DNA from: Alphaproteobacteria bacterium
GTDB lineage: Bacteria; Pseudomonadota; Alphaproteobacteria; MPNO01; UBA830
Direction: 5' to 3'
DNA: 64,000 bases
Assembly: GCA_965243135.1 (NCBI GenBank)
Contig: OZ251539.1
Location: 5,184,001-5,248,000, forward strand
The position numbers and the translations under genes were made by a program. Below the pieces are notes generated by a model. It did not search any database. It was not told the DNA's origin and saw nothing but the letters and a program-made list of their open reading frames with translations. Below, one piece after another: positions 1 through 39,349 of this stretch (positions within the stretch are counted from its first letter, which is position 1; every line of letters starts with the position of its first letter).

Positions 1-54
1 AATGCCGATCGCCAGGAAGACCGCCGCGTAGTAGAAGGAGTAGCGCGCCGCCAT
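1..54 (-). CDS. N-terminal fragment of a probable MFS transporter (HcaT-like), runs off window
   Basis: Minus strand reads MAARYSFYYAAVFLAIGI, like the first TM helix of HcaT/MFS_1-like transporters; divergent from the TPP-enzyme operon. Confidence 0.45.
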   Translation of the reverse strand, partial: MAARYSFYYAAVFLAIGI

Positions 55-3088: not shown

Positions 3089-4191
3089 CCGAAGGCGTCT
3101 GGCGGTTCATCGTCGACCGCAACTCCTATGCGGATTTTTCGGTTTCGGTATCGCCGGCCGTCGAACGGGCCGTGACGGCCGGCGAGGCGCCGCCGACGGT
3201 CTTTCTCAACCTGTTCGATCGGGATTCGATCACGGTCGGCGTCAACGAAGATCCAGAACAGGTGCTCGACGTCGAGTATTGCCGCGCTCGCGGGATAGAT
3301 TTCCGGCGGCGCGTCAACGGCGGCGGCGCGATCTACGCGGGCGCGGGGTCCGCGTTCCTGGTCTATTTCGTGCCCGTCTCGCATCTCCGCGCGCCGCCGA
3401 CCACCGCGGCGGCGTTTCCGGCCATCCTCACGGCCTTCGCGGAGACGCTCAGCGATCTCTACGGCATCCCGGCCCGCTACCGGCCGCTCAACGACGTCGA
3501 GGTGGAGGGACGCAAGCTGGTTCCGACGTCGCTCAAGATCGAGAACGGGGTGATGACCTTCCGCATCGTCGTCAACGTCCGCGAGATCGCCACCGGAGTC
3601 GCGGCGCGGGCGATGCCGATGCCTCCCGAAAAGGTGGGCGACAAGGCGCTCAAGGATCTGCGGTCGCGGTTCACCTGTCTGGAGCGCGAAGCGGGGCGCG
3701 CGTTTTCGGAAAGCGATCTCGTGGAGATGGCCCGCGAGGCCGTCGCGAACGCGTTCGATGCGCCCGCTCTCGACGCCGGCGCGCTCGCCGACGCCGAACG
3801 GCGCTACGCGGAGGAGTTCCGCGCCCGCTTCGACACGGATGCCTGGCTGTTCGGAAAGAGCGAACGCAACCGGTTGACCGGTTTGTTGCGGGCCGGCGAC
3901 GCGGTCGGCCGGGGGCGTCACAAGGCGGTCGGCGGAATGATATGGGCGACTCTCGCGGTGCGGGACGGCGCGATCCTGCATGCGATCGTCAACGGCGACT
4001 GGCATCCCCGCCCGATCGACAGCGTCGGCAGGCTCGAGGAAGCGTTGGCCGGGTCGGCGGCCGAGTCCGCGGCGCTGCAGGGGGCGGTCGCCGATTTCCT
4101 CGCGGGCGACGTCGAGTTCGCGGGCGTCGAGGCGGACGACCTGATGTCGGCTTTGGACAAGGCGCTCGGCGCTTGCGAACCGGTTCGCTGA
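3085..4191 (+). CDS. Lipoate-protein ligase A family protein
   Basis: RRVNGGGAIY and NDVEVEGRKL motifs plus LplA C-terminal domain; ATGA overlap with the previous gene. Confidence 0.88.
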   Translation: MTEGVWRFIVDRNSYADFSVSVSPAVERAVTAGEAPPTVFLNLFDRDSITVGVNEDPEQVLDVEYCRARGIDFRRRVNGGGAIYAGAGSAFLVYFVPVSHLRAPPTTAAAFPAILTAFAETLSDLYGIPARYRPLNDVEVEGRKLVPTSLKIENGVMTFRIVVNVREIATGVAARAMPMPPEKVGDKALKDLRSRFTCLEREAGRAFSESDLVEMAREAVANAFDAPALDAGALADAERRYAEEFRARFDTDAWLFGKSERNRLTGLLRAGDAVGRGRHKAVGGMIWATLAVRDGAILHAIVNGDWHPRPIDSVGRLEEALAGSAAESAALQGAVADFLAGDVEFAGVEADDLMSALDKALGACEPVR

Positions 4192-13270: not shown

Positions 13271-14918
13271 CAGAAATTCCCGCTAAGGTGGCCGCCCTTT
13301 GCGAAAGGCGCGTCGAGATAGCGTCGTTACCGAGGGATCAGCCGCCGCGACGCACCTTCCCCGCTTCGGCTTGGTGCCGACTTAGCCTTGACCATCCTGT
13401 TTCCCCTGAAAAACTTGCTTTAGCACATTCGGTCACGGTGCCAGGTCAGGAGGTGTCGTAGGGAATTCCCTCTGCTTTCCGGTATCCAAACGCGATCATT
13501 CGGTAGAGTGTTTCCCAGTCCTTCAAGAAGTATTCGAGAAACAATCCCCGCGCCTTTTCCCAGAAGTAAATGGGCCGCTTGGCCTTCGTTTGTGCCTGTT
13601 GGAACAGTTTGCAACATCGCTGTTGAATCTGGTCAATCAGGAACGCCAGCATCATCAGGAACGCAAAGACCGTCGACAGATTCTTGTTACCGTGACCGAA
13701 GTTGTGCTCAAAGCAGTAGCCTTGGTTCTTCAGGGTGTTGAAAGTTTCGTTCTCGATCTTCCAGCGCGCCCGCCCGGTGCGCATCAACTCCATCAGGTTC
13801 CCTTCGTCAATTGGCAGATCCGTGACCCAGGAGAAACGTTGTTTCTTACCGTTTGGGAGCTTCTCCCAGTATTCGAGAAAGTTCACTTTGAGGTCGAAGT
13901 GCGTATCGTTCAGAGGCACTCCGTTGAGATACCGGAATTCGTGCCGTATGTTGTCACCGTCCGTGAACTCCCGGCGCTCCACGGACGGCGCGTTGTTGAC
14001 CCACTCGAACAGGAATTTGTGGTCGCCGGGCTTCGCCCCCAGTATGAAACGCATGTCTAACTCCTTGAGAAGATTGACATGTGGTCCGTTCGAGGCCAGC
14101 CCATCTTCCAACACAACTAGCTTCAGGTGCGGGTGTTCACGACGCACATCTTCCAGAAGCCGTTTCGCTGCGTTGCGTTCGCAATCGTTCTTTTTTGCGC
14201 CGTCTTCCTTCAGGATCGGTTCCGGTGCAAACGGAAAAACCTCCTTTTGTTCCGGATGCACCAGAACGGCCCCCAACATCTGGTGGTAGTAGGTAATCGT
14301 ACCGTCGCGGTGGTGTTTCTCGCAGCAATTTTTACAGTGCACCTTGTTCGACGAGAAGTATCCCGTTCCATCGATCGAAAGAGCGTAATGCCCGTTCAGA
14401 CAAGTGTATTGTTCCAACCCCTTGCCTCGTTGCAAAACCTGGAACATCTTCGTGAAACAACGCCGCAATTGCCGCGGACAGACTTCGTCAAGCCGTTCGC
14501 GCATCGCAGTGTCCGACGGCACGCGCTTGACGCCGTATAAGGTCGCGAGGTTGTGCCGAACCGCTTCGTCGGCGTGCGCGGCTTCGTCGAATTGCAGAAG
14601 CGACGCATACTTCATACCGAACACCGCTAGACCCGACATCAGACAGTCCGTCTGGTTCAGCCCCCGGCTCGCGATCGGATCTTCAATACGGTCGAAACAA
14701 GCTCGCACTTCCTTCAGCAATCCCGGAGCGCTGAGCGTCTTGCGCATGCCTGGCATTCTGGCCATTTTGGTACAATCCCGCCTCGCCTTCGGACCACTTT
14801 CCAGAGAAAAATGCTCCGCTCGAAGGCAAATAGCCCCGAATCACCTCGAAAAGTCCACGAAAGACTTTTTTCCGGCCCCATATTTTTCAAGGGTTTCGAG
14901 CCTTAGCGGGAATTGCTG
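13271..14918 (-). mobile_element. Complete IS, copy 1 (DDE; probably ISNCY/ISDol1-like), 1648 bp
   Basis: 18-bp terminal IRs CAG(C/A)AATTCCCGCTAAGG; 9-bp target duplication CCGTGCGGC (13262-13270 and 14919-14927). Confidence 0.95.
13446..14765 (-). CDS. DDE transposase
   Basis: LSIDGTG, LEDGLAS, GRARWKIENETFNTLKNQGY. Confidence 0.95.
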   Translation of the reverse strand: MARMPGMRKTLSAPGLLKEVRACFDRIEDPIASRGLNQTDCLMSGLAVFGMKYASLLQFDEAAHADEAVRHNLATLYGVKRVPSDTAMRERLDEVCPRQLRRCFTKMFQVLQRGKGLEQYTCLNGHYALSIDGTGYFSSNKVHCKNCCEKHHRDGTITYYHQMLGAVLVHPEQKEVFPFAPEPILKEDGAKKNDCERNAAKRLLEDVRREHPHLKLVVLEDGLASNGPHVNLLKELDMRFILGAKPGDHKFLFEWVNNAPSVERREFTDGDNIRHEFRYLNGVPLNDTHFDLKVNFLEYWEKLPNGKKQRFSWVTDLPIDEGNLMELMRTGRARWKIENETFNTLKNQGYCFEHNFGHGNKNLSTVFAFLMMLAFLIDQIQQRCCKLFQQAQTKAKRPIYFWEKARGLFLEYFLKDWETLYRMIAFGYRKAEGIPYDTS

Positions 14919-31974: not shown

Positions 31975-33622
31975 CAGCAATTCCCGCTAAGGCTCGAAAC
32001 CCTTGAAAAATATGGGGCCGGAAAAAAGTCTTTCGTGGACTTTTCGAGGTGATTCGGGGCTATTTGCCTTCGAGCGGAGCATTTTTCTCTGGAAAGTGGT
32101 CCGAAGGCGAGGCGGGATTGTACCAAAATGGCCAGAATGCCAGGCATGCGCAAGACGCTCAGCGCTCCGGGATTGCTGAAGGAAGTGCGAGCTTGTTTCG
32201 ACCGTATTGAAGATCCGATCGCGAGCCGGGGGCTGAACCAGACGGACTGTCTGATGTCGGGTCTAGCGGTGTTCGGTATGAAGTATGCGTCGCTTCTGCA
32301 ATTCGACGAAGCCGCGCACGCCGACGAAGCGGTTCGGCACAACCTCGCGACCTTATACGGCGTCAAGCGCGTGCCGTCGGACACTGCGATGCGCGAACGG
32401 CTTGACGAAGTCTGTCCGCGGCAATTGCGGCGTTGTTTCACGAAGATGTTCCAGGTTTTGCAACGAGGCAAGGGGTTGGAACAATACACTTGTCTGAACG
32501 GGCATTACGCTCTTTCGATCGATGGAACGGGATACTTCTCGTCGAACAAGGTGCACTGTAAAAATTGCTGCGAGAAACACCACCGCGACGGTACGATTAC
32601 CTACTACCACCAGATGTTGGGGGCCGTTCTGGTGCATCCGGAACAAAAGGAGGTTTTTCCGTTTGCACCGGAACCGATCCTGAAGGAAGACGGCGCAAAA
32701 AAGAACGATTGCGAACGCAACGCAGCGAAACGGCTTCTGGAAGATGTGCGTCGTGAACACCCGCACCTGAAGCTAGTTGTGTTGGAAGATGGGCTGGCCT
32801 CGAACGGACCACATGTCAATCTTCTCAAGGAGTTAGACATGCGTTTCATACTGGGGGCGAAGCCCGGCGACCACAAATTCCTGTTCGAGTGGGTCAACAA
32901 CGCGCCGTCCGTGGAGCGCCGGGAGTTCACGGACGGTGACAACATACGGCACGAATTCCGGTATCTCAACGGAGTGCCTCTGAACGATACGCACTTCGAC
33001 CTCAAAGTGAACTTTCTCGAATACTGGGAGAAGCTCCCAAACGGTAAGAAACAACGTTTCTCCTGGGTCACGGATCTGCCAATTGACGAAGGGAACCTGA
33101 TGGAGTTGATGCGCACCGGGCGGGCGCGCTGGAAGATCGAGAACGAAACTTTCAACACCCTGAAGAACCAAGGCTACTGCTTTGAGCACAACTTCGGTCA
33201 CGGTAACAAGAATCTGTCGACGGTCTTTGCGTTCCTGATGATGCTGGCGTTCCTGATTGACCAGATTCAACAGCGATGTTGCAAACTGTTCCAACAGGCA
33301 CAAACGAAGGCCAAGCGGCCCATTTACTTCTGGGAAAAGGCGCGGGGATTGTTTCTCGAATACTTCTTGAAGGACTGGGAAACACTCTACCGAATGATCG
33401 CGTTTGGATACCGGAAAGCAGAGGGAATTCCCTACGACACCTCCTGACCTGGCACCGTGACCGAATGTGCTAAAGCAAGTTTTTCAGGGGAAACAGGATG
33501 GTCAAGGCTAAGTCGGCACCAAGCCGAAGCGGGGAAGGTGCGTCGCGGCGGCTGATCCCTCGGTAACGACGCTATCTCGACGCGCCTTTCGCAAAGGGCG
33601 GCCACCTTAGCGGGAATTTCTG
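31975..33622 (+). mobile_element. Complete IS, copy 3, 1648 bp
   Basis: Same IRs; 9-bp TSD ACCTCGAAC (31966-31974 and 33623-33631). Confidence 0.95.
32128..33447 (+). CDS. DDE transposase
   Basis: Protein identical to copy 1. Confidence 0.95.
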   Translation: MARMPGMRKTLSAPGLLKEVRACFDRIEDPIASRGLNQTDCLMSGLAVFGMKYASLLQFDEAAHADEAVRHNLATLYGVKRVPSDTAMRERLDEVCPRQLRRCFTKMFQVLQRGKGLEQYTCLNGHYALSIDGTGYFSSNKVHCKNCCEKHHRDGTITYYHQMLGAVLVHPEQKEVFPFAPEPILKEDGAKKNDCERNAAKRLLEDVRREHPHLKLVVLEDGLASNGPHVNLLKELDMRFILGAKPGDHKFLFEWVNNAPSVERREFTDGDNIRHEFRYLNGVPLNDTHFDLKVNFLEYWEKLPNGKKQRFSWVTDLPIDEGNLMELMRTGRARWKIENETFNTLKNQGYCFEHNFGHGNKNLSTVFAFLMMLAFLIDQIQQRCCKLFQQAQTKAKRPIYFWEKARGLFLEYFLKDWETLYRMIAFGYRKAEGIPYDTS

Positions 33623-34619: not shown

Positions 34620-36803
34620 CTAATCGCATCCCTCCGTGCACCTCGCGCCGAAACTGCCTATGAGCGAACTGCGGAGCGCGCGACCCCGGTGATCGGATTG
34701 CATGTGCCACCAGCCCGCGGCTTCCAAGCCGTTCCTGGGACCGTAGAGATTGCCGCCGTATTTGGAAGTCGAATCCGACCCGGCGTCGAAGTCCCATGAA
34801 TTCAGGTCGCCTCCAGCGGTTCGCGGATAACCGAGATAGCCCCCGAAGCTGCCGTCGGCGGCGATGTCGCCCTCCTCCATCGGGATGTCTCTGGGGGCGG
34901 GGCGGTACGGAATCCAAACCCCGTCGTGGCGGAGTTCCTCAAGGCCGGAGATCATGCCGCTGATCTTGTTCGAGTCGGCGGGAATGCCGTCGCCGGTGCA
35001 GCCGCTGCCGCCGATGCATGCGTTGAGCGTGATGCCGCCCCTGAGCGGCGTCGCTCCGCTCAGCGTGATGAAGTTCTCATCCCCGTGGTTGATCAGCGCG
35101 CGCGCCATGGTGCGGCCCTTGAACGTGGCGGCGATCGACGTCGCGACGTCCGTCGTCCTCATGCCGTCCGCATCCCTGAAGGCGTCGTAGCCGAAGGCGA
35201 ATGCCTGCGGGCGGGTGAAGGACGGCGTGGCCTTCACGTTGTCGAAGACCATGAACAGGCCGTAGGCCGCGTATTCGAGGTAGCGGTGCGCGTCGCCGCC
35301 GGCGAGGCCGCCGTAGTTCGACAGCCACAGTTCGTAGGTTCCGAGCTCCTCCGGCCGGCCGTCGGCGTCGTCACCTTGAATCGTGTCCGGAAGCTGTTCG
35401 CGTTGGGCTTCGGTCAGCGGAACCTTCACCTTCCAGTAATAGGCTGCTTCGCCATGGGGCGACTGCGACGGCTGGCCAAAGGCGACGGCGAGGTCGTCGT
35501 GGGCCCAGTCGCCGCAATCGGAGAGAGGGTCTCTCCAGCAGGCGCCGGCGTTGTCCGCGTAGTAGCCCTGGAGCGCGGTCGCCTGATCCGCCGTCAGCGT
35601 CCCGGTCGCCGCCTCCAGGCCCAGGTCTCTGGCGTGGGAGGCGGTTATCGCGTCGCCCTGCGCCGCGCTCGCGTCGCCCAGCTTCCCGTCCGGGCCGTAC
35701 CTCCACCAATCGTTGTGGTTGGGCGCATCGGCGTCGGCGTCCCTGAAGTAGTCGAAGGTTCTCTGCATGTCGTAATAAACCAAGCCTTCGCCGCCGAATT
35801 TCAGCGTCGCGCCGTCGGCGGACAGCTGGAGCGAACTCGTCACCACGCCATCGGTGTTGGAATAGGACGTCGGCGTGCCGTCGTCGCCCTGGATCTTGAT
35901 GGGATGCCTCCCCGCCGCGCGCAGCGTCACCGCCCGCAGCGGCAGTTCGTCCGTCGCGGCAAGGCCGCCGCTCGCGGCCCCGACCCGTTTGCCCGCAGCC
36001 CAGGCGACGCCGTCCGTCGCGATGGCGAGTTTCGTCCAGCCTGTCTCTCCGGTGTCGGTGCGCGGCGTGCGCGCGATGTCCGCCTCGCCTCTGGGCACGA
36101 ACCGCGGCTCTCGCGGTTCGAGCGCAACGGCCAGGGATACGCGCGGGTCGTACGCGTCGGCCCTGGCCCGTTGCTCCGCGGCGTCGCGCTCGTGCTTCGC
36201 GGCGGCGCTCTCGGCCTGCGCCAGTTCCTGACGGAGCGGCGGCACCAGGGAAATCTGGGCCGTGGACAGCGTGACCTGGGCCTGCAGCAGCAGGGTCCGG
36301 ATCTCCGGAGTGGGGTTCGCATCCAACGCCGCCGTCAGCTTCGTCTGCGCGTCGTCCAGCGCGGCCTGCGCCCGGTCCAGCGTCGTGTGCATGCTCGCCA
36401 GCGCCACAGGCCCCCCGGAGGGAAGCGCCGCGTCGGCCGCCGTCAGCACGTCGGCGACCGTCTCCAGCGCGGTATCGACTGCCGTCAGCGCCGTCGATGC
36501 CGCCGTCTTCGCGCCGCTGTCGGGCTGCGCCGCCAGACGTTCGCGAAAAACCTCCAGATTTTGCCGGGCTTCTTCCACCACGGCGCCGGCCGCCTCGCGC
36601 TGCTCGGGCGCCCCCAACGCCGCCTGAGCCTCGGCCAGCGAGGCGCGGAGAGCGCTCAACGCGGCCTCGGCCGCGGCCGTCTTCTGCCGCTCGGCCGCGA
36701 GAGCCTCCGGGTCGGGGACGCGCACCGTCTTGGTTTCGGTGCAGGCGCCCAGCGCCAGCGCAGCGCCGCAGACCAGCGCCAGACATAGCTTGTACATCGT
36801 CAT
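34620..36803 (-). CDS. Large surface lipoprotein with coiled-coil stalk and TbpB-like C-terminal barrel
   Basis: RBS AAGAGGA; lipobox LGAC; Ala/Glu-rich helical region; YLEYAAYG, ATFKGRTMA, YGGNLYGP...EAAGWW...GSFGA. Confidence 0.82.
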   Translation of the reverse strand: MTMYKLCLALVCGAALALGACTETKTVRVPDPEALAAERQKTAAAEAALSALRASLAEAQAALGAPEQREAAGAVVEEARQNLEVFRERLAAQPDSGAKTAASTALTAVDTALETVADVLTAADAALPSGGPVALASMHTTLDRAQAALDDAQTKLTAALDANPTPEIRTLLLQAQVTLSTAQISLVPPLRQELAQAESAAAKHERDAAEQRARADAYDPRVSLAVALEPREPRFVPRGEADIARTPRTDTGETGWTKLAIATDGVAWAAGKRVGAASGGLAATDELPLRAVTLRAAGRHPIKIQGDDGTPTSYSNTDGVVTSSLQLSADGATLKFGGEGLVYYDMQRTFDYFRDADADAPNHNDWWRYGPDGKLGDASAAQGDAITASHARDLGLEAATGTLTADQATALQGYYADNAGACWRDPLSDCGDWAHDDLAVAFGQPSQSPHGEAAYYWKVKVPLTEAQREQLPDTIQGDDADGRPEELGTYELWLSNYGGLAGGDAHRYLEYAAYGLFMVFDNVKATPSFTRPQAFAFGYDAFRDADGMRTTDVATSIAATFKGRTMARALINHGDENFITLSGATPLRGGITLNACIGGSGCTGDGIPADSNKISGMISGLEELRHDGVWIPYRPAPRDIPMEEGDIAADGSFGGYLGYPRTAGGDLNSWDFDAGSDSTSKYGGNLYGPRNGLEAAGWWHMQSDHRGRALRSSLIGSFGARCTEGCD

Positions 36804-37330
36804 CGAACGGGTCCTCTTGATCCGTGAAGAGGCCCCGTGAAGAGGCCCCGTGAAGAGGCCCCGTGAAGAGGCCCCGTGAAGAGGCCCCGTGAAGAGGCCC
36901 CGTGAAGAGGCCCCGTGAAGAGGCCCCGTGAAGAGGCCCCGTGAAGAGGCCCCGTGAAGAGGCCCCGTGAAGAGGCCCCGTGAAGAGGCCCCGTGAAGAG
37001 GCCCCGTGAAGAGGCCCCGTGAAGAGGCCCCGTGAAGAGGCCCCGTGAAGAGGCCCCGTGAAGAGGCCCCGTGAAGAGGCCCCGTGAAGAGGCCCCGTGA
37101 AGAGGCCCCGTGAAGAGGCCCCGTGAAGAGGCCCCGTGAAGAGGCCCCGTGAAGAGGCCCCGTGAAGAGGCCCCGTGAAGAGGCCCCGTGAAGAGGCCCC
37201 GTGAAGAGGCCCCGTGAAGAGGCCCCGTGAAGAGGCCCCGTGAAGAGGCCCCGTGAAGAGGCCCCGTGAAGAGGCCCCGTGAAGAATTCCACGTCAGTGT
37301 ACCGCGCCGGCCGGTGACGTCAAGAATCAT
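36800..37330 (-). other. Candidate leader ORF translated through the tandem array
   Basis: GGAG-N7-ATG at 37330; MILDVTG...(SSRGLFTGPLHGA)n...GPVR; TGA overlaps the lipoprotein ATG (ATGA). Confidence 0.4.
36822..37285. repeat. Perfect 13-bp tandem repeat (CCGTGAAGAGGCC) x ~35.7
   Basis: 464 bp with no variant unit seen and no spacers. Confidence 0.98.
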
Positions 37331-37458
37331 GGCGTCGCTCCGCGAGGCGCTCCTCCAAGGAGTCCTGCGCCATGGCAGGCGAATGGAGGGCTGCCGCAGC
37401 GCCGGCCGCCCAGGTTCCCGGCTTCGTCGGTGGTCCTTCCGTGAGATTGGCAATTATT

Positions 37459-37481
37459 GCAATGATATAACGTATCGTTAC
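37459..37481. promoter_or_regulatory. Zur-box-like imperfect palindrome
   Basis: GCAATGATATAACGTATCGTTAC versus proteobacterial Zur consensus GAAATGTTATA-N-TATAACATTTC; lone AT-rich patch between divergent genes. Confidence 0.5.
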
Positions 37482-37660
37482 GGTCATGTCGACCCCTTTC
37501 CCAGCGGAGCCGTTTGCGCTGCGCCATTTTTGTCGGCCCGCCGCCCGTCCGCCGCGGCGGCTCTCGCCGGAAGACTCTCGCGCGCTCGCGCAAGCGCCGG
37601 AATTCAGGAACGAGGCGCCGCAGCGTTGCGACGGGTTTACGGATCGGGGACAATGGAAGC

Positions 37661-39349
37661 ATGGAAGAAACGGCAAGACTCGAAACCGACGTCCTTGTGA
37701 TAGGCGCGGGCGGCGCGGGCATGTACGCCGCGATCTCGGCGGCGCGGAACGGTGCCCGCGTGCTCCTCGCCGACAAGAGCATGATCGGGCGGGGCGGAGC
37801 GACCATCATGGCGCAGATGACGACCGCCGCCGCCCTCGGAGAGCTTGAGCCGGACCATTGGACGCGGCATCTCGACGACACGCTGGAGGCCGGGCGCGGG
37901 CTGTGCAACGGGGAGCTCGCCGCCATCCTCTGCGAGGAGGCGATCGCGCGCATCCGCGAGATGGACGAATGGAAGGTCGGGTGGGCGCGCAGGGACGGCC
38001 GCATCGTCGGCGTGACGGCGCCGGGCCACGGCGCTCCCCGCTGCGTGTACGTGGACTTTCTCAACACCGGCCCGGCGGTCGCCAAATGCCTCCGCGGACG
38101 CGTCGCGCGCGACGACCGCGTCGTGCGGGTCAGCGGCCTCGCGATCGCCGACGTGGCGGTCGAGGACGGGCGCGCCGCGGGCGCCGTCGGCTTCAACATG
38201 GCCGACGGAGCCCCCGTGGCGATCGCCGCCGGGGCGGTGGTGATCGCGGCCGGCGGACTGACCCGGATCTACAGGCGCAACAGCGCGTCCTCGAACATGA
38301 ACGGAGACGGCTACGCCCTCGCCCTGCGGGCCGGGGCCGACCTGATCGACATGGAGTTTCCCCAGTTCTTTCCGATCGGGCATCTGGCGCCGCGGCTGGT
38401 CGGCATGGATCCGATCATGTGGGATCCGTTTCGCTACAAGCTCGGCGGACGGCTTCTCAACGCCGAGGGCGAGGAATTCGTCCACAACTACGGCGGCGAG
38501 GATGGAGGCAAGTATGTCTCCACGCGCGACATCGTGGCCTACGGAATCACCAAAGAGGCCGAGGCCGGGCGCGCGACGCCGGGAGGCGGGGTTTATCTCA
38601 GCTTCGCGCATATTCCCGAAGAACGGTTGCGGGAGGCGTTCGGACCGGTCATCGACCGCCTGGCCGCGAACGGCATCGACCTGACCGAGACCGCTGTCGA
38701 GGTCTCGCCGATCGCGCACTACCACATGGGTGGGATACGGGTTGACGGCCGGATGGAGACCTGCGTCCCGGGGCTCTTCGCGGCGGGCGAGGCGGTCGGC
38801 GGCGCCAACGGCGCCAACCGGCTTTCCGGAAACGCGCTGCCGGAGGCCTTCGTCTTCGGCGAGCGCGCGGGCCGTTTCGCGGCCGCCGACGCGCGGAAGC
38901 GGCCGGCGCCTCCGAGAGCGCGGCTGCCGGCGCCGAAGCGCCGGAGCGCGGCTCGGGACGCTGCGCTCGGCGGACTTTGGAGCCGGCTGCAGGATCTGAT
39001 GTGGAACAGGGTCGGCGTGCTGCGAACCGCCGCCGGCCTCGACGAAGCGCTGGCCGGCGTCCGCGGCATGAGGGCCGAACTCGAGACGGTCGCGCTGCCC
39101 CGCGTCGGCGGGTTCGATCAAGCGCTGCTCGACTGGCACGACCTGCGCTCCGCCCTGCTCGCCGCGGAGGCGGTGGCGTTCGCGGCGCGCAACCGGGCGG
39201 AAAGCCGCGGCGCTCACCAGCGGGAGGATTTTCCCGAAACCGATCCGGCGCTGGAACTGAACCAGCGCCTTCGGCTCGGACGCGACGGGAAGCTAGTGTC
39301 GGACTACCTGCCGGTCGTTCGCGGCGCGCCGGCCGGGGCGGCGGCGTGA
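37661..39349 (+). CDS. FAD-dependent oxidoreductase, SdhA/FrdA/NadB family
   Basis: VIGAGGAG, STRDIVA, AHYHMGG, GANRLSGNAL, ESRGAHQREDFP. Confidence 0.92.
   Translation: MEETARLETDVLVIGAGGAGMYAAISAARNGARVLLADKSMIGRGGATIMAQMTTAAALGELEPDHWTRHLDDTLEAGRGLCNGELAAILCEEAIARIREMDEWKVGWARRDGRIVGVTAPGHGAPRCVYVDFLNTGPAVAKCLRGRVARDDRVVRVSGLAIADVAVEDGRAAGAVGFNMADGAPVAIAAGAVVIAAGGLTRIYRRNSASSNMNGDGYALALRAGADLIDMEFPQFFPIGHLAPRLVGMDPIMWDPFRYKLGGRLLNAEGEEFVHNYGGEDGGKYVSTRDIVAYGITKEAEAGRATPGGGVYLSFAHIPEERLREAFGPVIDRLAANGIDLTETAVEVSPIAHYHMGGIRVDGRMETCVPGLFAAGEAVGGANGANRLSGNALPEAFVFGERAGRFAAADARKRPAPPRARLPAPKRRSAARDAALGGLWSRLQDLMWNRVGVLRTAAGLDEALAGVRGMRAELETVALPRVGGFDQALLDWHDLRSALLAAEAVAFAARNRAESRGAHQREDFPETDPALELNQRLRLGRDGKLVSDYLPVVRGAPAGAAA

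Follow-up and report, generated by a model that had tools for sequence, protein, structure and literature searches.

A perfect 13-nucleotide tandem array in the predicted 5′ leader of a bacterial lipoprotein gene family

The array and its counterparts in other genomes

The lipoprotein gene P0001 lies on the minus strand (34620..36803) of a 64,000-nucleotide stretch of contig OZ251539.1 from an Alphaproteobacteria bacterium, which we call the window, and encodes 727 amino acids (aa) with a signal peptide carrying a lipobox, an N-terminal helical region and a β-rich C-terminal region. On its 5′ side and on the same strand stands a tandem array of 35.7 perfect copies of a 13-nucleotide (nt) unit (36822..37285), which by prediction makes up almost the entire transcribed, untranslated 5′ leader of the gene.

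Reading the minus strand, Tandem Repeats Finder (TRF) reports these copies of the unit GGGGCCTCTTCAC with 100% matches and a score of 928, and a pattern search returns 35 exact copies on that strand (36824..37278) together with one unrelated match containing one mismatch. These 36 matches compare with 2.21 expected, a count attained in none of 100 shuffles. The array is followed by 18 nt, atcaagaggacccgttcg, which include the Shine–Dalgarno (SD) sequence AAGAGGA (36812..36818, minus strand; read from the sequence, 8 nt 5′ of the start codon), and then by the ATG at 36803. It occupies more than half of the intergenic region, which runs from 36804 to about 37650 and is bounded by a divergent flavoprotein gene. 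An initial annotation of this DNA had described a perfect 13-mer array ending 18 nt before the lipoprotein ATG, with a unit free of stop codons in every minus-strand frame, and both descriptions are accurate. As the same array stands in the same place in four independent genome assemblies, it is not an assembly artefact in kind. Searched against Rfam at E ≤ 1, the region 36600..37700 gave only chance matches below threshold (mir-7180, 18.9 bits against a gathering score of 78).

Only one sigma-70-like site, TTGACG-16-TACACT (37323..37296), occurs on either strand in 36700..37800, with 9 of 12 consensus matches and 0.0 such sites expected in shuffles. Its −35 hexamer TTGACG (37318..37323) and −10 hexamer TACACT (37296..37301), both consensus matches on the minus strand, constitute the predicted promoter of the lipoprotein gene, and TACACT ends 14 nt before the first CACGGGG of the array. 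Counted as 7 nt past the −10 hexamer, transcription would start at about 37289, a few bases 5′ of the array. A position of the repeat between the predicted transcription start and the start codon emerges both from this promoter prediction and from the conserved position of the promoter-like site before 14 related arrays.

These relatives come from a single scan of species-representative genomes in which the alignment of the protein family served as the query and which returned 70 family loci, all in assemblies of uncultured bacteria and mostly labelled Alphaproteobacteria. The initial annotation had proposed looking for similar arrays before TbpB-like paralogs; with TRF and a core-motif search, we found the same repeat directly 5′ of the gene at 13 loci, amounting to 14 arrays of variable copy number in four other genomes. 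Contig OZ251449.1 carries L001, with two arrays of a 12-nt variant unit (15.6 and 9.6 copies), L028 (21.7) and L030 (25.7); OZ251446.1 carries L020 (22.8) and L033 (29.2); OZ241357.1 carries L024 (2 units) and L027 (7.2); and OY282368.1 carries L047 (10.3), L048 (14.3), L050 (6.3), L053 (29.3), L055 (7.3) and L057 (3 units, two of them variant). Copy number thus spans about 2 to 35.7 over the 15 arrays including that of the window (2 to 29 in the related ones), and 12 of the 13 arrays reported by TRF are 100% perfect. The two arrays of L001, the closest relative (75% identical over the best tblastn segment and 88% identical over the C-terminal part), have identical flanks, yet differ by six units, and their 12-nt variant, GGGGCCCU, retains the 8-nt self-complementarity described below.

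All 14 related arrays are arranged in the same order, with a promoter-like block, the array, an SD-bearing tail and the ATG, and a purine-rich SD sequence sits at the same place in all related leaders. Before 11 of the 14, a −35 hexamer TTGACC stands at the equivalent position and is followed by 17–18 nt, and a hexamer T[A/G]NNNT ends 13–14 nt before the first CACGGGG in all 15 arrays (14 of 14 related ones and the window). When L001 and L030 were scanned independently, each gave the same single promoter site. The unit is identical across five genomes, the window included; its flanks, compared without gaps over 82 between-genome pairs, are 52% identical in the 14 nt 5′ of the array and 42% identical in the 18 nt before the ATG. 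Judged by these alignments, the unit is more conserved than its flanks.

Using the peptide encoded by the array (P0092) to search for the same locus in sister genomes returned seven ORFs (open reading frames) on other contigs, none orthologous and none named by their source, with the same or slightly different units. The reading frame of the array in P0094 (252 aa) continues into a lipoprotein that has a subtilase (S8-peptidase) domain, PF00082; P0094 and P0095–P0097 share the same 13-aa repeat or variants of it (GLFMGPLHGASSW, GLSTGPLHGASPR). Because such repeat ORFs occur on other contigs, and because P0094 is an S8-peptidase lipoprotein, the array is not restricted to the P0001 family. Other repeats were seen at the family loci: the sequence CATATGTCCCGAAC, present three times immediately 5′ of the −35 hexamer in L053 (about 3540–3585), a 46-bp unit repeated 15.5 times in L047 (2732–3436), and, in L015 (4–1197), an array with a 61-bp period and a constant part of about 29 nt that resembles a CRISPR array.

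Each unit contains GGGGCCUC, an 8-mer that is complementary to itself with two G–U pairs, so that any two units can form an 8-bp helix, and adjacent units a hairpin with a UUCAC loop. Because this 8-mer pairs with itself in every unit, the leader is predicted to fold strongly: the 516 nt from the predicted start to +30 have a minimum free energy (MFE) of −275.8 kcal/mol, against −206 ± 5.6 for shuffles (z = −12.4). Many pairing registers are equivalent, and the internal hairpins are absent from the centroid structure, which keeps the last one. That last hairpin (36807..36838, minus strand), common to the MFE and centroid structures computed for the complete leader, is predicted to join the last unit, ACGGGGCCUCUU (36838..36827), to the SD segment AAGAGGACCCGU (36818..36807) across an 8-nt loop, and since the last unit pairs in this way, the CCUCUU of each unit can be read as an anti-SD sequence. 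In an alignment of the tails, a consensus hairpin of nine pairs is kept in 13 of 13 distinct leaders and persists while the SD arm varies (AAGAGGACCC, GGAGGUCCC and GGGGUCCU, among others); changes on both sides of the stem are seen in two of the nine pairs, including an A–U pair that accompanies the variant unit of L057.

In calculations with substrings of the array in the window, opening the ribosome footprint costs 7.3 kcal/mol without the hairpin and 9–14 kcal/mol with it. The cost is 7.3 kcal/mol with no unit, 13.8 with one, 9.0 with two, 13.7 with three, 10.8 with four and 12–13 with 14–15; it alternates between odd and even unit numbers, with a difference that has dwindled to about 1 kcal/mol at 14–15 units, and follows no monotonic trend. 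A G-quadruplex (G4) in the RNA was considered and discarded, as hairpins win with or without a G4 option in the calculation.

The lipoprotein family and the repeats 5′ of its genes

The N-terminus of P0001, MTMYKLCLALVCGAALALGAC, is a lipoprotein signal peptide with the lipobox ...LALGAC. Neither Pfam nor NCBIfam, TbpB-type models included, has a family for the protein at E ≤ 0.01, and a profile search of the PDB with its sequence returned helical noise only (E ≥ 0.05). The protein collection holds 90 relatives besides P0001 itself (91 matches in total), none of them named. P0002 is an ortholog with 96% identity, and two paralogs, P0003 (89% identity) and P0056 (42%), are encoded on the same 6.1-Mb contig; a tblastn search of the window with these two found no gene besides that of P0001.

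An AlphaFold2 model of P0001 built with 64 sequences (predicted local distance difference test score of 83.9, predicted template modelling score of 0.71) places five long helices behind the signal peptide, ahead of a β-rich C-terminal half. Compared with the PDB by Foldseek, its top matches are TbpB, HpuA, fHbp, hemophilin, LbpB and NHBA, with E values from 1e-5 to 2e-3, probabilities mostly of 0.8–1.0 and target-normalised template modelling scores of 0.2–0.66, a moderate similarity to TbpB-type structures. The model thus supports a TbpB/fHbp/HpuA-like fold for the C-terminal region, and the TbpB-like identity that the initial annotation had given the lipoprotein holds at the level of the fold. 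P0001 has a lipobox and a C-terminal β-rich region in common with the TbpB, fHbp, HpuA and hemophilin lipoproteins, and differs from TbpB-type proteins in its long N-terminal helical region, which they lack, and in having no sequence-family match. Those surface lipoproteins are exported by Slam (type 11 secretion), as described in the accessible text of PMC5449769 and PMC7857515; among window ORFs of at least 220 aa, Pfam scans found no Slam-type partner.

To compare 5′ regions across the family we used the lipobox cysteine, which could be placed in 67 of 71 genes (the 70 loci and the window; L036, L038, L059 and L065 were excluded). In the 400 nt that precede this cysteine, 14 of the 67 have a 13- or 12-nt array, 38 have a C/G homopolymer of at least nine bases and 15 have neither, so that a hypermutable repeat of one type or the other lies upstream in 52 of 67 loci. 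In this 5′ segment, homopolymers have a density of 1.53 per kb and in the other 641 kb of the loci one of 0.030 per kb, a 51-fold enrichment; they range from 9 to 35 bases (for example, L007 3843–3870, L014 3076–3110 and L045 3722–3746). The C tract forms the 14–18-nt spacer between a TTGNNN and a −10-like hexamer in at least seven loci: a strict promoter-spacer pattern matched 7 of the 38 homopolymer loci, with further ones visible by eye and not rigorously counted. L002 (about 3942–3966), L017 (3934–3966) and L046 (3874–3906) have an inverted pair of homopolymers, C9–14, 5 nt and G9–14, flanked by complementary bases, which in the leader would form a very stable hairpin just before the SD sequence.

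The distribution of these devices does not follow the gene bodies. On a quick maximum-likelihood tree of the C-terminal 430 residues (67 rows, LG+G4, support from the SH-like approximate likelihood ratio test only), the array class (14 rows) requires nine changes, at least eight of which are forced by well-supported branches, and the 5′ module therefore appears to have been shuffled relative to the gene body. Over these 430 residues, for instance, the poly-C gene L026 is nearly identical to L020 and L028, both of which have arrays, and L023, L024, L025, L027 and L039 form a further such group with differing 5′ devices. This pattern suggests that 5′ modules or gene bodies have been exchanged among paralogs and between species.

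Candidate roles of the array

We favour, with a probability of roughly 55%, a reading in which the array is a hypermutable untranslated 5′ leader, tied to a conserved promoter and to an SD sequence that it can occlude, and serves as a mutable dial of expression. Transcription would start from the sigma-70-type promoter a few bases before the first unit, and the transcript would span all units as far as the SD sequence. Slippage would add or remove 13-nt units and thereby change the length and folding of the leader, in which units would pair mutually through GGGGCCUC while the last one, with its CCUCUU, would occlude the ribosome-binding site. Copy number would then set the amount of lipoprotein through translation initiation, leader processing or premature termination, making the gene and its many paralogs contingency loci of a rheostat type, like the hmw adhesin genes of Haemophilus influenzae. 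The results set out above show how the locus is built, how far this plan is conserved, that copy number differs between loci and which RNA pairings are predicted; we infer where transcription starts, that the array is hypermutable in a population and that its copy number affects expression.

Several points weigh against this reading. The TTGACG-16-TACACT of the window departs from the TTGACC-18-TA[T/G]G[G/A]T of its relatives, MAFFT left the −35 hexamers unaligned, and the promoter is a prediction by consensus match, backed by conservation alone; a second start site may lie upstream of 37330. Differences in copy number between paralogs and species are not equal to switching within a clone. Covariation lends the SD hairpin limited support, the unit that makes up its 5′ arm being invariant. 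At equilibrium, computed SD accessibility is nearly independent of copy number beyond about ten units (11–13 kcal/mol for 5 to 15 units), the natural leaders show no trend of accessibility with copy number, and a rheostat based on RNA structure is not demonstrated by the calculation.

The weak dependence of SD accessibility on copy number would also be expected if the array were a slippage-prone passenger without a regulatory role, a quasi-palindrome drifting neutrally along with a recombining 5′ module of promoter, leader and signal peptide. Copy numbers from 2 to 36 with no apparent optimum, and the shuffling of that module against the gene body, fit such drift as well. We nevertheless consider it unlikely: the unit has stayed identical in five genomes while its flanks have fallen to 42–52% identity, the 12-nt variant preserves the self-complementarity, and the SD arm is complementary to the unit in 13 of 13 leaders. 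Furthermore, an unrelated poly-C/G repeat is enriched 51-fold in the 5′ region of 38 other members, and because a second, unrelated type of hypermutable repeat occupies the same region, the family points to selection for mutability there. The shuffling could alternatively reflect an action of the array as DNA, in which GGGG runs on the non-template strand, within about 10 nt of the predicted start, would form G4 or slipped structures that block the polymerase in a length-dependent manner or start recombination among family members. Four units as single-stranded DNA do prefer a four-layer G4 (−15.4 kcal/mol) over hairpins (−8.4 kcal/mol) in a model not calibrated for DNA, and a G4 upstream of pilE has a role in Neisseria gonorrhoeae (cited in the accessible text of PMC12721329). 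But the 9-nt loops are long for a stable G4, the same repeat as RNA prefers hairpins, recombination within an array upstream of the coding region would not alone alter the protein, and there was no sign of recombination breakpoints at the arrays in this analysis, which together make a DNA-level role improbable.

Two further proposals make the array a counter. One works in RNA and requires no translation of the repeat: units would pair two by two through GGGGCCUC as they leave the polymerase, so that with an odd number the last unit would be left over and sequester the SD sequence (OFF or low), with an even number the last unit would already have a partner and the ribosome-binding site would be open (ON), and gain or loss of one unit would flip the gene, a binary switch governed by n mod 2 in place of n mod 3. 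The oscillation of the opening cost at low copy number is of this kind; because the equilibrium difference shrinks to about 1 kcal/mol by 14–15 units, the effect at 35 units would have to be kinetic, and the natural arrays, ten odd and five even, do not differ significantly from equal numbers. We regard parity counting as decidedly improbable. The other, put forward in the initial annotation, has the array translated from an ATG at 37330, with the repeat number modulo 3 deciding between translational coupling to the lipoprotein gene (ON), an in-frame fusion that buries the signal peptide, and run-through in the third frame (OFF). Its geometry is present in the window and is arithmetically right. 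Minus-strand ORFs of three frames traverse the array or touch its edge (34620..37292, 36800..37453 and 35371..36786): the lipoprotein's own frame is open across it from a GTG at 37292, giving an 890-aa ORF; the third frame is shut immediately 5′ of it by a TGA (37296..37294); and the ATG at 37330, with GGAG 7 nt upstream, opens a 176-aa ORF of GLFTGPLHGASSR repeats (36800..37330, minus strand) whose TGA (36802..36800) overlaps the ATG at 36803 as ATGA. The stop-free unit suits translation in any frame, and the lengths from first unit to ATG over the 15 arrays, with remainders of 0 in four, 1 in six and 2 in five, are what a random three-state switch would allow. However, the ATG at 37330 lies 7 nt upstream of the predicted −35 hexamer and, being upstream of that element of the only promoter-like site, falls outside the predicted transcript. 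Walking each frame upstream and downstream of all 15 arrays, we found no ATG between the −10 hexamer and the array in any of them, and an ATG-started ORF across the array in only three (the window, L020 and L033), where each ATG is in or upstream of the −10 hexamer (at −49 from the array in the window, at −19 and within the hexamer in L020, and at −91 and further upstream in L033). In six of the 15 (L001a, L001b, L028, L030, L048 and L057), no frame is open into the array from an ATG, GTG or TTG, stops in the promoter block shutting all three frames 10–45 nt upstream. In four leaders, all from the same genome, a TTG that lacks an SD sequence stands 10 nt 5′ of the array, in frames 1, 2, 0 and 1 with respect to the gene. 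In most relatives, stop codons separate the array from the SD sequence, and the 12-nt units of L001 cannot shift the frame, yet their copy number differs between the two arrays. The ATGA overlap is found in 13 of 15 leaders regardless of phase because the second codon is conserved (Thr, ACG or ACC), and the seven ORFs returned by the array-peptide search, none orthologous or named, offer no support. The three-state frame switch is therefore not supported, arithmetically possible as it is in the window; we give a translated leader very little credence and judge the 176-aa ORF, which has no counterpart before the 14 related arrays, not to be a gene. A longer ORF in the same frame (217 aa, 36800..37453, minus strand) matches DUF4900 above the Pfam cut-off (41.1 bits, E 2.3e-10), but none of its stretches passes alone, and the match most likely reflects the repeat, not homology.

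For the hypermutable, untranslated leader that we favour, what survives of the initial annotation is its idea of a contingency locus, which holds at the family level, with copy numbers of 2 to 36 and a hypermutable repeat at 52 of 67 loci; its action through a leader peptide does not.

Surroundings of the locus and relation to known systems

The divergent flavoprotein gene (37514..39349, plus strand) is of the succinate dehydrogenase, fumarate reductase or L-aspartate oxidase type (FAD_binding_2, E 3e-58; Succ_DH_flav_C, E 3e-20), and its true start is probably further in than 37514 because the domain begins at residue 59 of the ORF. Between this gene and that of the lipoprotein, an AT-rich stretch at about 37440..37480 (...ACGTTATATCATTGCAATAATTGCCAAT..., minus strand) stands out in an intergenic region of otherwise 70% G+C and may be an operator or the promoter of the flavoprotein gene. 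A 290-aa ORF on the minus strand (37327..38199) is antisense to the flavoprotein gene and has no family match in Pfam or NCBIfam. Elsewhere in the window, two 439-aa ORFs (13446..14765, minus strand, and 32128..33447, plus strand) are 100% identical, lie in inverted orientation and have a weak match to IS4-family transposases (NCBIfam, E 1.7e-4). They bracket about 17 kb that include the genes for transketolase, GAPDH and phosphoglycerate kinase, and one of them, about 1.2 kb past the end of the lipoprotein gene, falls in a stretch whose G+C content is lower (0.51–0.56).

A repeat in the 5′ untranslated region (5′-UTR) that acts as a dial is a known kind of device, and the closest described system is the (ATCTTTC)n rheostat in the 5′-UTR of hmw1A and hmw2A. 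According to the accessible text of PMC12721329, the (ATCTTTC)n of H. influenzae hmw1A is part of the transcribed 5′-UTR, where it pairs with a purine/G-rich arm and undergoes cleavage by RNase III, and a higher n means lower expression. As far as that text goes, the two systems have in common a repeat whose unit exceeds 6 nt and which stands before a gene for a surface protein (here putative), within the 5′-UTR (here by prediction), pyrimidine-rich repeats that pair with a purine-rich arm near the start (here likewise predicted), a copy number that differs between loci (for hmw, also between strains) and the existence of paralogs. They differ in the unit, which here is 13 nt, GC-rich and self-complementary against 7 nt in hmw; in the purine-rich arm, which here would be the SD sequence itself, directly abutted by the array; in the minimum number of units (2 against 11); and in the hosts, uncultured Alphaproteobacteria-like genomes here and nontypeable H. 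influenzae for hmw. A fall of expression with rising copy number, and a step by RNase III, were shown for hmw; any counterpart in the P0001 family would be putative.

Homopolymer tracts in promoter spacers are found at phase-variable surface genes such as opc and porA of Neisseria and fim of Bordetella. The poly-C tracts between TTGNNN and a −10-like hexamer in other members of the P0001 family are a like device, whereas the array of the window lies 3′ of the −10 hexamer. Classical phase variation by simple sequence repeats (SSRs) switches genes by frameshift through repeats in coding regions (introduction of PMC12721329, as accessible); the array resembles these in having a unit that is not a multiple of three and open frames throughout, and is unlike them in lying outside the lipoprotein coding region, in having no conserved start leading in and in having a 12-nt variant. 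Homopolymeric repeats in 5′-UTRs that set control by small RNAs, as summarised in the same introduction (its references 15 and 16), are variable leader repeats acting post-transcriptionally, as proposed here, but the unit here is 13 nt and not a homopolymer, and no trans-acting RNA, for which no search was made, is known for this array. The TAACTGA direct repeats of marine Beggiatoaceae, intergenic at many genes and proposed to act post-transcriptionally in the accessible text of PMC4679880, have a 7-nt unit of other sequence, spread genome-wide and, as far as described there, not tied to a single family, unlike the array of the P0001 family. In the library searched, the unit string in six rotations and complements had no bacterial occurrence, none of the papers listed in a search for 13-bp repeats paired these with phase variation, and searches on leader repeats brought up the hmw work and general reviews. 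What is new here is the 13-nt self-complementary unit with its predicted anti-SD sequence, arrays that would form the entire leader, their alternation with poly-C within one family, and the hosts.

Most of what is known about repeat-driven phase variation comes from a small number of cultured pathogens, and the units concerned are mostly 1–7 nt long and located in promoters or coding regions. The unit described here is 13 nt long and, in up to 36 copies, appears as the whole predicted leader of the messenger RNA in a large, unnamed lipoprotein family with a predicted TbpB-type fold, and the family has two interchangeable hypermutable devices, a leader array or a poly-C tract (in the promoter spacer in at least seven loci). 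With self-complementarity and a predicted anti-SD sequence in one unit, the array offers a simple test system for control by leader repeats at the RNA level, a subject recently opened by the work on hmw. By analogy with the better-known systems, these loci suggest that the uncultured bacteria which carry them vary a repertoire of surface proteins much as Neisseria and Haemophilus do.

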